From NCBI RefSeq assembly GCF_003334765.1, contig NZ_QOWT01000020.1: DNA of 64,000 bases; one strand, written 5' to 3'. This document shows positions 33,412 through 39,505 of the stretch, one piece after another. Position numbers and translations under genes: made by a program. A model generated the notes under the pieces. It ran no database searches. It was not told the DNA's origin and saw only the letters and a list, made by a program, of their open reading frames with translations. Position 1 is the first letter of the stretch. Each line of letters starts with the position of its first letter. Origin of the DNA: Escherichia coli. Lineage in GTDB: Bacteria > Pseudomonadota > Gammaproteobacteria > Enterobacterales > Enterobacteriaceae.

Positions 33412-34863
33412 TCAGCTAAACAACATCGCGATTTTGCCGAGAGCATAACCTATCACCAGCACCGTTAAACTGATTTTGATAATGCTGGTAATGCTCTGTG
33501 GTTTTTCACCCTCATCATTTTTTTCTTCATGATTTTCAGGTGTTGGCTCATCGACATCTTCATCCTCCGGCTCGAGTTTCACTTTCGTCAAAAGCATCCG
33601 GGTGACAATGGCCTCTAATGGATGAGCATCTCCGCCTTCCAGCCTTGTATTAAGACGGGCCAGCATCTCTTGTTTCGGAAACGCTTCAAGTACTACCTGT
33701 TCCGCTACCCGATACAAATCCAGGAACGGTGAATCTTGCTCTGTCTCGCTACCGACTCTCGATTTCCACCACGCCCATGCTTTGCGCTTGAAGAATAACG
33801 ACTCAATAAACGATTGACCTAACGGCGATAATTTTCCGCTATGTAAAATCTCCGCCCATAACAGCCGCGTCCGGGCGCTCTCACCAGGAACATATTTCAG
33901 CGGTTGACCTTGCGCATCTACCATGCTCCGCGCTTCGATAACCATCACTAATAACGCGAAATAATCCGGGCAATGACGCTTGCTCCACTGCAACAACAAA
34001 TTATCAGCTTGTGTAGATGGGTAACTTTCCCAGTACGCGCAGAGATCGGCAAGCAGGCTTTCCCCCTCGCCGCAGTACAAACGTTGTGCACACAAGTAAT
34101 ACCGGGCATCTTCGCTTTCTGGTTCTTCCGTTTGCCACTGTTGAGCGACAGGAATGAGTTCCGCCATACCTGTTTGCACCGAGCTGTACCAGCGCAACAG
34201 TTTGCGATGTAACTTTGCATCATCAGGAATTAACCACGGACCTTCCATCGCCAAAAACGCAGTGACATAGTCAGGATGGTAACGGCAGCAACGTTCCAGC
34301 GCGAAGTAATACTCAACAGTCTGGTTCTGCAACGCAATGGGATATTCCAGAAGGCTAAGGAAATCGAAACAATCACCAGCCTGAATGGCCTCAAGAAAAG
34401 CCTCCCTTTCTTCCTCATCCATTCCTTCGCTGTCATTAAATGAATGCCAGTTCAAACGCTCTGCCAGCAAAGAAGCACAATTTAATGAAAGATATCGCGC
34501 TTCTATGGCGATTGCACACAGCGGCCAGCGTAATTGATCGACATCCTCCATGTTCCAGGTATTTAATTGCTGAATAAATTTCTGCCAGGCGGAAGGCTGA
34601 AAACGATCACTTTCTGAATCCAGTAATGTCCTGAATGCACGTAGTATTTCATGTTCAGCGGCAGCATCTTTTTCTTCATCATCTGCTTCCTCGACAGGAT
34701 TTACCGCCAGTCGCAGGGCCTCTTCATAGGCCTGGCGTAATGCTTTAAACCCTTGCGGATCGGTTTCGGGATGACACAACGGTAAGCGAGCAAGATAAGC
34801 CTGGCGGATAATGTCTATTTGCGTCGTGCTTTCAATTTCGAGGATTTGCCAACATGTTTTCAT
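33412..34863 (-). CDS. djlC: J-domain co-chaperone DjlC (YbeV), C-terminal hydrophobic tail
   Basis: 483-aa ORF; N-terminal J-domain-like helices (…[29 protein letters not shown]); paralogue of the ORF at 36233..37660. Confidence 0.9.
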
Positions 34864-35567
34864 AGGTCGCTCACATCCTTAAGCGTTACCGGGCATTCAG
34901 ACTGGACAGTTAATGGCTGCCAGGGAAGCGTGGCATAGAAACGATCGCTTCCCGCTGCCAGCTCTTCGAACATACGACTCCCGGCGCTATCGTATTTGTA
35001 CAGGGTTAGCGCCTCGCGTAGCGAAGTGTTGTCTTCGCACTGAGAAGATTGCCAGTAGAGACGTCCTAACGAATAGGCGGAAAAATAGTGCATCCAGCTG
35101 TGATAGTAATGGTGAGCTCGTACATAGACGCGCGATTGCAGCCATAAACTCTCTTCTTCCGTCAGCCACTTGTTGAGCACACCGACCCGTGACAGAAACC
35201 CCATTCGAACATAATCCCAGGCTTTGATTCCCCCTTCCCCACAGCACATAGCGGTTTGGGCAACGAATTGGGTATAAATCAACCCTCTCTCCGAGCCACC
35301 AGCAATTAATGCTTTCCACTCTTCAGGGGAAGAGCGATGCCATGTCAGATATAAGCCAGCTAAATCATTGGCATGACCATCATCAGTCATCTGATAAATA
35401 GTCTGAATTAAATCATCACGATTATTTATTCCCCAGGATGATGAGAGCTCGAATTCTTTTATCCCAGTATACATTTTTGGCGAGTCATGCGCGGGTTTGC
35501 AACCCTGATTAAGTATTTCCATGGGCGCAGAAAGCGCAAAAAGAAGATATTGTTCTTCCTTATTCAT
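34860..35567 (-). CDS. ybeU: DUF1266-family protein YbeU
   Basis: 235-aa ORF; stop overlaps the djlC start by 4 nt; paralogue of the ORF at 37657..38364. Confidence 0.9.
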
Positions 35568-35668
35568 TTGTTAATAATCCCTTAAGTGCATTAACTGACT
35601 ACTTTTTTATTATTGATGAGTATAAACTTGACGCTTTCAAAATAAAAAGAAAATCGAAGCATTCACAC

Positions 35669-36223
35669 ATGAATAAAAAATTAATGTATATATTCGCAAT
35701 TTTTATAGTTGCAGCAATTACCTGTATTAGCCAACCCAAGAAAACGACGTTGCGTGATAAAGCCATGGTGAATTATGCCTTTGATTATTTAAGCTCACCG
35801 GGCAGTCTTCCATTCACCACGGCAGCCACGGAGCTTTCCGCGATTCATGGTCACTCAACGTCGCAATATCGCCTTGGAGAATTTTATCTTCATGGTAGCG
35901 ACGGTAAACCACTGGATTATACACAGGCGAGATACTGGTATGAGCAATCAGCGGAACAGGAAAATCCACGCGCGCAAAGTAAACTGGGGTGGATCTACCT
36001 CAAAGGTCTGGGGGTCAAACCCGACACCCGTAAAGCAATTCTCTGGTATAAGGAAGCAGCTGAACAAGGGTATGCTCATGCTCAATATACTTTAGGTTTG
36101 ATCTACAGAAATGGCTCAGGTATTAATGTTAACCATTATGAATCTCAAAAATGGTTAAAACTGGCCGCCAAACAACATTACAAAAATGCGGAAAGATTAC
36201 TTGCCGGGCTTCCCGCACATTAA
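35669..36223 (+). CDS. ybeT: Sel1-repeat protein YbeT with N-terminal hydrophobic segment
   Basis: 184-aa [23 protein letters not shown] followed by Sel1-like repeats (…A(Q/E)xGxxxAQYxLGxxY…). Confidence 0.85.
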
Positions 36224-37660: not shown

Positions 37661-38364
37661 AGGTCGCTCATATCCTTAAGCGTTTCCGGGCATGCAGAAT
37701 AGTAAGCCAATGGTTGCCAGGACAAGGTAGGGTAATACGCATCATCACTGGCAAATAATTGATAAAACATATCATTGCCGGAATCGTCGTATTCTTTACG
37801 CGCTAAGAATTCGCGTAATAAAGGCAGATGATCATCTTCGGGAGACTGCCAATATTGCCGACCAAAGGTATAACCGGCAAAGTATTGCCGCCAGTTACTA
37901 TAATAACGTAGAGCCCGTAGATGAATGCGCGACTGGATCCATAGACTTTCTTCTTCGCTCAACCAGTTATTAAGTACGCCCATTCGGCTTAAAAAACCCA
38001 TCCGGACATAATCCCAGGCTTTGATTCCCCCTTCGCCACAGCATTCGGCGGTGCTGGCGACAAATTGCGCATAAGCCTGACCTTGCTCATTTAGTTCAGC
38101 AAGATAGTCACGCCATTCACATGGCGAATAACGAAACCAGCGGTGATAAAACCCTGCCAACCGAGCGGCATGACCGTTATCGATCATTCGGTGAATTGTG
38201 CGCAGCAGGTCATCACGGTCATCAATTCCCCATGAGGAAGAAAGGTCAAAAAAGCATGTACCTAAATACATTTTGGGTGATGAATGCGAAGGTAAACAGC
38301 ATTCATTGCGTATTTCCATCGGAGTGGAAAGTGCAAACAATATTTTTTGCGACTCCATGTCCAT
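37657..38364 (-). CDS. ybeR: DUF1266-family protein YbeR
   Basis: 235-aa ORF; stop overlaps the djlB start by 4 nt; shares the [20 protein letters not shown] block with YbeU. Confidence 0.9.
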
Positions 38365-38527
38365 ATAATTTATCCTTAAATATTCATTAAATGAATATTA
38401 GCCGCATTGCGAGGCTCGTTTATTTATACTTTTCTGACGCGACATAATACGCATAAAATAAGGCTTACGCAAAAATGGAACACATAAAAATATAATATGT
38501 TTTATCTGCAACCATAAGGAAATGATA

Positions 38528-39505
38528 ATGATTTTCACGTCAAGTTGCTGCGATAATTTATCAATAGATGAGATTATCGAACGTGCTGAAAAAGGCGATT
38601 GCGAGGCTCAATATATTGTTGGGTTTTATTATAATCGCGATAGCGCAATTGATTCTCCGGACGACGAAAAAGCCTTTTACTGGCTGAAGCTGGCCGCTGA
38701 GCAAGGTCATTGTGAAGCACAGTATTCCTTAGGGCAAAAGTATACCGAGGATAAAAGCCGTCATAAAGATAATGAGCAAGCCATCTTCTGGCTGAAAAAA
38801 GCTGCCCTACAAGGCCATACTTTCGCTTCCAACGCCCTTGGCTGGACACTGGATCGTGGAGAAGCCCCCAATTATAAAGAAGCGGTTGTCTGGTATCAGA
38901 TAGCCGCGGAGAGCGGAATGTCTTATGCGCAAAATAATCTTGGGTGGATGTACAGAAATGGCAACGGAGTCGCAAAAGACTATGCGCTGGCATTTTTCTG
39001 GTACAAACAAGCTGCATTACAAGGCCATAGTGACGCGCAAAACAATCTGGCCGATCTTTATGAAGACGGAAAAGGCGTTGCTCAAAACAAGACACTCGCC
39101 GCATTCTGGTATTTGAAAAGCGCACAGCAGGGTAATCGGCACGCCCAGTTTCAAATTGCATGGGATTATAACGCTGGCGAAGGGGTGGACCAGGACTATA
39201 AGCAAGCGATGTACTGGTATCTGAAGGCTGCCGCTCAGGGGAGCGTCGGCGCTTACGTCAACATCGGTTATATGTATAAACACGGACAAGGCGTTGAGAA
39301 AGATTATCAGGCTGCCTTTGAATGGTTTACGAAAGCCGCTGAATGCAATGACGCCACTGCCTGGTATAACCTGGCCATTATGTATCACTACGGAGAAGGA
39401 AGACCTGTCGATCTCCGACAGGCTCTCGACCTGTATCGTAAAGTTCAGTCATCCGGAACCAGAGATGTCAGTCAGGAAATTCGTGAGACTGAAGATTTAC
39501 TGTAG
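38528..39505 (+). CDS. ybeQ: Sel1-repeat protein YbeQ (no signal peptide)
   Basis: ORF 38522..39505 (MIMIFTSSCC…); about eight Sel1-like repeats; start could be 38522, 38525 or 38528. Confidence 0.85.
   Translation: MIFTSSCCDNLSIDEIIERAEKGDCEAQYIVGFYYNRDSAIDSPDDEKAFYWLKLAAEQGHCEAQYSLGQKYTEDKSRHKDNEQAIFWLKKAALQGHTFASNALGWTLDRGEAPNYKEAVVWYQIAAESGMSYAQNNLGWMYRNGNGVAKDYALAFFWYKQAALQGHSDAQNNLADLYEDGKGVAQNKTLAAFWYLKSAQQGNRHAQFQIAWDYNAGEGVDQDYKQAMYWYLKAAAQGSVGAYVNIGYMYKHGQGVEKDYQAAFEWFTKAAECNDATAWYNLAIMYHYGEGRPVDLRQALDLYRKVQSSGTRDVSQEIRETEDLL

Follow-up and report, generated by a model that had tools for sequence, protein, structure and literature searches.

Do the two J-protein modules that adjoin the gene of the specialised Hsp70 HscC in Escherichia coli act in different compartments of the cell? 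The question is raised by the window, a 64,000-nucleotide stretch of E. coli contig NZ_QOWT01000020.1, in which the span 33412–39505 holds the six genes djlC, ybeU, ybeT, djlB, ybeR and ybeQ within the annotated order rihA, hscC, djlC, ybeU, ybeT, djlB, ybeR, ybeQ, ybeL, leuS. The layout is that of a tandem duplication of a unit made up of a J-protein gene, a DUF1266 gene and a divergent Sel1 gene, with identities of 49% between DjlC and DjlB, 59% between YbeU and YbeR, and about 36% over the repeat units of YbeT and YbeQ. A sequence-only reading of this DNA had placed hydrophobic stretches at the C termini of both J-proteins and at the N terminus of YbeT, had seen none in YbeQ, and had proposed that the two modules may differ in the compartment in which they work or in their clients. 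Of the three Hsp70s of E. coli, HscC is understood least, and sensitivity to Cd2+ and to UV are its only known phenotypes. The HscC–DjlB/DjlC chaperone system was reportedly the subject of work by Kluck et al. in 2002. The inner-membrane site of its J-proteins is already accepted and the anchors in themselves add little. The narrow question is whether YbeU, YbeR, YbeT and YbeQ belong to the machine, and to which side of the membrane YbeT is turned.

We propose, with a probability of about 0.75 for the explanation as a whole, that this is the HscC chaperone locus of E. coli and that its core encodes an Hsp70 system of the membrane surface. Specifically, DjlC and DjlB would each sit on the cytoplasmic side of the inner membrane, held there by one transmembrane (TM) helix at the C terminus, each would be co-translated with a soluble DUF1266 partner (YbeU and YbeR, respectively), and each would recruit the single soluble Hsp70, HscC, through an HPE-type J-domain. 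E. coli would thus possess two tandem paralogous DUF1266–J pairs, each with a divergent Sel1 neighbour, and the Sel1 genes would be additions of the Escherichia lineage rather than core components. YbeQ would be soluble and cytoplasmic, and YbeT would most likely be inner-membrane-associated or exported, with a slight preference for the N-in/C-out orientation. The essence of this proposal is that the modules would differ in which accessory or client Sel1 protein adjoins them and not in the site at which the J-protein and the Hsp70 act.

Tail anchors and J-domains of DjlC and DjlB

The seven proteins, HscC and the products of the six genes, were scanned with a 19-residue window on the Kyte-Doolittle (KD) and Hessa scales; these hydropathy values, like the charge and lipobox rules applied below, are simple substitutes for DeepTMHMM, SignalP and Phobius. 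Only three segments rise above the TM threshold, namely DjlC 464–482 (KD 1.99, summed Hessa 1.4), DjlB 449–467 (KD 2.39, summed Hessa −0.67) and YbeT 5–23 (KD 2.00, summed Hessa 2.2), and no TM-grade segment is seen in HscC, YbeU, YbeR or YbeQ, whose maxima are KD ≤1.2 and Hessa ≥8. The hydrophobic ends of both J-proteins had been read correctly from the letters, in string and in coordinate, and the scan agrees with them. Composition-preserving shuffles matched the observed maximum in 6 of 2000 trials for YbeT, 31 of 2000 for DjlB and 125 of 2000 for DjlC, and the hydropathy value of DjlC is by itself not rare. We take the DjlC segment as real because it stands at the very end of the protein, is conserved and is borne out by published experiments described below.

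DjlC is laid out as a J-domain (about residues 1–53), a disordered stretch (55–69), an all-alpha region (72–429), an acidic disordered linker (432–457) and the C-terminal TM helix. Its AlphaFold2 model, with a predicted local distance difference test score (pLDDT) of 78, contains the helices of the J-domain and, after the linker, a helix at 458–482. As in tail-anchored membrane proteins in general, the single TM domain lies at the extreme C terminus, at 458–482 of 483 residues in DjlC and 449–475 of 475 in DjlB, so that one or two residues at most extend past it in DjlC. Neither protein has a signal sequence or a second TM segment, and no other 19-residue window of KD ≥1.6 occurs in either. 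The C-terminal TM segment is found in every full-length close homologue. The helix is retained in the orthologues of other Escherichia species, of two metagenomic relatives and of Klebsiella spallanzanii, and also in remoter full-length homologues of 25–59% identity; the DjlB tail is conserved in Escherichia spp. and K. spallanzanii.

Two smaller features of the tails may be added. The single-TM tails all hold a lysine or arginine 7–9 residues before the C terminus (encoded within 33415–33440 and 36236–36260 of the window). Judged by eye, K. spallanzanii keeps the DjlB-type core KIIFYIFI better than the protein as a whole (45% identity), and conservation of the tail core hints at a sequence-specific role of the helix.

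The J-domains of DjlC and DjlB carry HPE (HPETDPQGF) and not the canonical HPD, and the Pfam DnaJ model matches DjlC at an E value of 0.036 only. The HPE sites lie on the minus strand at 34768–34776 in djlC and 37565–37573 in djlB, inside an invariant HPE[ST]DP[QE]GF. Replacement of HPD by HPE is a recognised minority variant in which DjlB and DjlC are included (2023 PNAS survey).

These properties agree with published work. DjlC was demonstrated experimentally to be a bona fide tail-anchored protein of the inner membrane, with a TM domain that is both required and sufficient for targeting and for N-in/C-out insertion after translation, and with contributions from the signal recognition particle, FtsY, YidC and DnaK (Peschke et al., PMC6794478). 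It is counted among the founding examples of bacterial tail-anchored proteins and, like Flk and SciP, has a single C-terminal TM domain, an N-terminal domain in the cytoplasm and no signal peptide (PMC6794478); for DjlB the tail anchor is predicted. DjlB is described as tail-anchored by homology, and the ATPase of HscC is stimulated by DjlC, whereas DnaJ, CbpA and HscB have no such effect, with stimulation by DjlB assumed (Mayer, 2021, PMC8215388). In the same review, hscC and djlB djlC mutants are reported to be Cd2+-sensitive, and HscC, DjlB and DjlC to lie below the proteomic detection limit (Mayer, 2021, PMC8215388). The locus in the window is that very system, with a sequence 100% that of K-12, and YbeU/YbeR (DUF1266) and YbeT/YbeQ are mentioned nowhere in the review (PMC8215388). 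Hence the proposal of tail-anchored J-proteins with cytoplasmic J-domains, one half of what the sequence-only reading had observed, is correct and is a rediscovery, already known from experiment for DjlC and from homology for DjlB.

The triad of DUF1266 protein, J-protein and HscC

YbeU belongs to the DUF1266 family, its residues 41–216 matching positions 2–175 of the 175 in Pfam PF06889 at an E value of 4.7e-45, and its AlphaFold2 model has a pLDDT of 91. ybeU and djlC overlap by 4 nt, stop on start (ATGA; 34860–34863), and ybeR and djlB do so to the same extent (37657–37660). A survey based on the signature HPE[ST]DP[QE]GF, with one genome per species, gave 79 loci, in which open reading frames (ORFs) were called and classified by BLASTP. 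About 75 gammaproteobacterial loci share a core consisting of a DUF1266 gene, a J gene directly downstream of it and a convergent gene for an HscC-type Hsp70, and the genera concerned are Pseudomonas, Pectobacterium, Brenneria, Yersinia, Budvicia, Pragia, Limnobaculum, Gilliamella, Klebsiella and Escherichia. The 4-nt overlap (ATGA or GTGA) between DUF1266 stop and J start recurs at 76 of 79 junctions, both junctions of the window included, and suggests that the two proteins may be made by coupled synthesis.

The C-terminal anchor of the J-protein is general throughout the family. Membrane anchors are present in 79 of the 81 J-protein ORFs that lie beside HscC-type genes, as a single terminal TM segment in 10 and as a cluster of TM segments in the last 160 residues in 69, the remainder being one truncated pseudogene and one ORF classed as 'other'. 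TM segments were found in none of 79 DUF1266 proteins and none of 78 Hsp70s. The literature search returned nothing on the topology or function of YbeU and YbeR, and DUF1266 as a putative conserved, translationally coupled partner of an anchored J-protein is absent from the literature searched.

The C-terminal region is variable among remote relatives of DjlC. Those from Pseudomonas, Pectobacterium, Yersinia, Budvicia and others (L008–L079; P0199–P0263) are about 900 residues long and, in place of the single tail anchor, have two or three TM segments ending in ...NRYGPPP. Such multi-TM regions set these remoter members apart from tail-anchored proteins proper, and in P0204, the one relative of this length that was scanned, Pfam DUF805 matches in the TM region. 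Other HPE-J relatives, of 950–1100 residues, are without TM segments; the one scanned (P0289) has TPR arrays, and further TM-less HPE-J relatives end in TPR-like sequence.

The two modules do not differ in the predicted topology of their J-proteins or of their DUF1266 proteins, and they share a single Hsp70, which is cytoplasmic and ATP-dependent; because of this the chaperone step of both modules would take place on the cytoplasmic side of the inner membrane. Moreover, since DjlC has almost nothing past its TM helix, a periplasmic domain of YbeT could reach the machine only via membrane helices. The modules therefore do not appear to act in different compartments, as had been suggested. They may differ in their clients, for which the different Sel1 neighbour is the sole evidence.

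The Sel1 proteins and the side of the membrane that YbeT faces

YbeT has three Sel1 repeats (PF08238; E values 1e-11 to 3e-5) and YbeQ has seven at E ≤1e-3 and one weak repeat, and the best sequence relatives of both in the PDB are Sel1 repeat proteins, including c5321 of E. coli CFT073. Neither protein reaches the cut-off of any curated family, and the nearest NCBIfam families (MerG, AlgK, MotX and ExoR, all of which we take to be exported proteins) are far under theirs. The PF08238 repeats are what YbeT and YbeQ have in common with exported Sel1 proteins (HcpA-C, EsiB/c5321, MotX, AlgK, ExoR and MerG). YbeQ differs from these proteins in having no export signal, and YbeT differs in being strongly positive after its hydrophobic run and in having no canonical lipobox. 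Hcp proteins are defined by repeat-wise disulfides, which are impossible in YbeT since its soluble part contains no cysteine. For YbeT and YbeQ, too, the literature searched was silent on topology and function; an older annotation of ybeT reads 'conserved outer membrane protein'.

The start of YbeQ was considered with care. Its ORF has two in-frame ATG codons, at 38522 and 38528, giving the protein start M(IM)IFTSSCCDNLS, and a TAAGGA Shine-Dalgarno sequence is separated by 2 nt from the former and by 8 nt from the latter. This spacing favours the ATG at 38528, which is the RefSeq start and gives 325 residues. An upstream in-frame extension is impossible, as the ORF already begins with the first start codon that follows a stop. 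In the homologue search for YbeQ, long repetitive Sel1 proteins dominated the matches, and orthologues were drawn from genomic loci instead; a hydrophobic segment is absent from all of them. An out-of-frame 'VAAII' raised the possibility that ybeQ begins with a frameshifted relic of the TM-coding region of ybeT; this was rejected as chance, the local DNA alignment of the two intergenic regions with the adjoining 5' ends scoring 18 against a shuffle mean of 19.6, with 244 of 300 shuffles at or above the observed score. YbeQ thus looks cytoplasmic, as the sequence-only reading had it, and YbeT does start with a hydrophobic segment, which is present in all six orthologues. The contrast between the two proteins is real and conserved, and is the one new point in that reading, though a minor one; it does not establish different compartments for the modules, and the Sel1 genes are lineage-specific neighbours.

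The orientation of YbeT is less easily decided. Its first residues resemble the n- and h-regions of a signal peptide, with MNKK followed by a 16-residue hydrophobic run (L5–I20) and then SQP; the proposed signal peptide or signal anchor presupposes an N-in/C-out orientation. The c-region with small residues at −3 and −1 and the neutral or acidic start of a mature region, both expected for signal peptidase I, are not seen: there are weak cleavage candidates only (V14-A15-A16 and C19-I20-S21), and the 15 residues after the hydrophobic run contain four Lys/Arg and have a net charge of +3. The lipobox consensus is [LVI][ASTVI][GAS]C, and in all six YbeT orthologues C19 is preceded by A-I-T, which puts Thr at −1 and Ala at −3. 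According to the positive-inside rule the cytoplasmic flank of a membrane segment has more Lys/Arg, and the two on the N flank of YbeT against four on the C flank are the reverse of what a type II signal anchor (N-in/C-out) would have and favour a C-terminal domain that stays cytoplasmic. An excess on the C side is found in five of the six orthologues and one is tied, this being L002, with three on each flank. Distant short homologues of YbeT have classical signal peptides or lipobox-like motifs, which favours N-in/C-out. Hence the signal-like arrangement of the N terminus has to be set against a flank charge outside the export controls described next, the lack of a lipobox and the lack of a clear cleavage site. 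We give about even odds to a YbeT that is periplasm-facing or exported and clearly lower odds to one that faces the cytoplasm, and what is left goes to further possibilities, poor insertion and an alternative start among them.

Several results weigh against our own proposal, at least in the part that concerns YbeT and the Sel1 genes. As export controls, one N-terminal pattern was run on the window and on eight 50-kb pieces of K-12 and the matches to annotated exported proteins were kept (n = 31; examples are fimbrial subunits, OmpA, DegP, DsbC, BtuF, UshA, TesA, PhnD, LptE, RlpA, DacA, PagP and lipoproteins). The net charge of these 31 ranges from −3 to +1 with at most three Lys/Arg, and YbeT lies outside that range; among the pattern matches, a charge as positive as that of YbeT or more so was seen in the cytoplasmic phosphatase Etp and in ORFs that are not genes. 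No experimental localisation of YbeT, YbeQ, YbeU, YbeR or DjlB was found in the literature and supplements searched, and the six genes have no entry in the supplements of proteome-wide E. coli localisation and thermal-profiling studies. Finally, what would tie the Sel1 genes to the chaperone is adjacency, joint duplication and a common SlyA/H-NS response only.

A first alternative, a serious one that we regard as possible although doubtful, is that YbeT is N-anchored in the opposite orientation (N-out/C-in, or otherwise facing the cytoplasm), so that its Sel1 domain would lie beside DjlC, YbeU and HscC and YbeQ would be the soluble equivalent for DjlB and YbeR. Both could then be, for example, client-selecting adaptors, and the modules would differ in tethering only. 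The charge distribution of YbeT and its orthologues, beyond the range of the exported controls, points this way, as do the lack of a canonical lipobox and of a clear AXA-type cleavage site, the cysteine-free soluble domain and the cytoplasmic nature of YbeQ in the paralogous position. The hydrophobic core is also as conserved as the Sel1 domain (mean pairwise identity 0.84 for each), which fits a retained helix better than a cleaved signal. A cytoplasmic helical-repeat partner has a precedent in the family since TPR arrays are fused in cis to the J-domain of the TM-less P0289, with TPR-like ends in other TM-less relatives; by analogy this precedent fits YbeQ, and would fit a cytoplasm-facing YbeT. 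However, lysines in an N-tail oppose its transfer across the membrane, and the two in the four-residue MNKK should do so here. The C-flanks of L002 and the orthologue L006 are milder (net +1) and the N-tail of L002 has three Lys/Arg, the arrangement of n- and h-regions is typical of a signal peptide, and many Sel1 proteins of bacteria that have a signal at the N terminus reside in the periplasm. If the Sel1 domain of YbeT is cytoplasmic, the locus would be a simple example of one Hsp70 served by a tethered and by a soluble adaptor, and if it is periplasmic, YbeT would more probably be a client, or a neighbour with no relation to the machine. We consider it improbable that an HscC machine at the membrane surface has the translationally coupled DUF1266 protein as an unrecognised and obligatory third subunit, and that Escherichia has added to this machine two cytoplasm-facing Sel1 adaptors (YbeT tethered with DjlC/YbeU, YbeQ soluble with DjlB/YbeR) that steer HscC to different clients.

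The genomic neighbourhood bears on a second alternative, that ybeT and ybeQ are functionally unrelated genes, horizontally acquired and H-NS-silenced in a variable chromosomal spot, and that their difference in topology is irrelevant to the chaperone modules. In the 79-locus survey, a Sel1 gene within ±8 kb of the core is confined to three further Escherichia species and the two close metagenomic relatives L002 and L003, and the syntenic locus of K. spallanzanii reads leuS-ybeL-DUF1266-J-hscC with no Sel1 gene. Because of this restricted distribution, we take the Sel1 genes to be recent accessories of a much older DUF1266–J–HscC triad. The Sel1-free triads of Klebsiella, Pseudomonas, Pectobacterium, Yersinia and others are what an unrelated pair of genes would predict, as are the variability of the rihA–ybeL interval, with variants that lack module 2 or carry unrelated genes, and the low GC content around ybeT and ybeQ. 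We nevertheless think this explanation doubtful, though possible, since a divergent Sel1 gene is kept in both copies of the module, since L002, with a single module, has a YbeT-type, TM-bearing Sel1 gene adjoining DUF1266, and since ybeT and ybeU-djlC, both listed as H-NS-regulated, are both induced by SlyA overexpression. The remaining alternative is the sequence-only interpretation itself, in which an exported or periplasm-facing YbeT and a cytoplasmic YbeQ place the modules in different compartments or on different clients, and despite the conserved contrast between the two proteins, the apparent duplication of the Sel1 gene together with the DUF1266–J pair and the signal-like N terminus of YbeT, we judge it improbable, given that a chaperone step with one ATP-dependent Hsp70 and the same J/DUF1266 topology cannot be periplasmic, that the one or two residues past the DjlC helix leave YbeT no periplasmic contact, that about 70 other loci with the same core have no Sel1 gene, and that the flank charges of YbeT are atypical for export.

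The variable locus and H-NS silencing also prompted the idea of a defence system, which was rejected: PADLOC-DB v2 gave no matches for six proteins and only a marginal repeat match for YbeQ, and no link between HscC and anti-phage activity was found in the literature. In a transposon-insertion sequencing (TraDIS) study, ybeT was among the top insertion-enriched genes after challenge with phage Arnold, and the Keio ybeT mutant lysed like the wild type (2025 bioRxiv).

Layout and variability of the locus

The features of the locus are collected in Table 1. By sequence comparison, the window between 31.6 and 40.1 kb is 100% identical to E. coli chromosomes, that of K-12 included. The gene ybeT diverges from ybeU across a spacer of 101 bp.

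Table 1. Genes and membrane-segment coding regions of the HscC locus, in window coordinates.
Feature	Coordinates	Strand	Description
hscC	31682..33352	+	specialised Hsp70; soluble, without TM segment; single copy; convergent with djlC
djlC	33412..34863	-	HPE-type J-domain co-chaperone of HscC, 483 residues
DjlC tail-anchor coding region	33415..33492	-	residues 458-483; 19-residue KD window, AlphaFold2 helix, orthologue conservation
ybeU	34860..35567	-	DUF1266 protein, 235 residues; soluble, all-alpha
ybeT	35669..36223	+	Sel1-repeat protein, 184 residues; 3 Sel1 repeats at 64-169; N-terminal hydrophobic segment
YbeT N-terminal hydrophobic segment coding region	35681..35737	+	residues 5-23; MNKK before, KKTTLRDK after
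djlB	36233..37660	-	djlC paralogue, 475 residues; architecture as in DjlC
DjlB C-terminal hydrophobic tail coding region	36236..36316	-	residues 449-475
ybeR	37657..38364	-	DUF1266 paralogue of ybeU
ybeQ	38528..39505 (ORF from 38522)	+	Sel1-repeat protein, 325 residues, about 8 repeats; without hydrophobic segment; divergent from ybeR

The interval between rihA and ybeL is variable in E. coli, with the full locus in 3686 of 5426 genomes and about 970 without a match. Two variant genomes, H11 (L083) and H12 (L084), illustrate this: one has lost djlB–ybeR and has a truncated ybeQ, and in the other a DUF6985 gene and two hypothetical genes replace the whole locus. Around ybeT and ybeQ the GC content falls to 0.40–0.44. 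A promoter and terminator scan of the region gave nothing that exceeds the shuffle expectation. In Escherichia sp. MOD1-EC7003 (L004:944-2299), remnants of a third HPE-type J-protein gene lie upstream of the locus as two ORFs, and a C-terminal hydrophobic tail is present here too.

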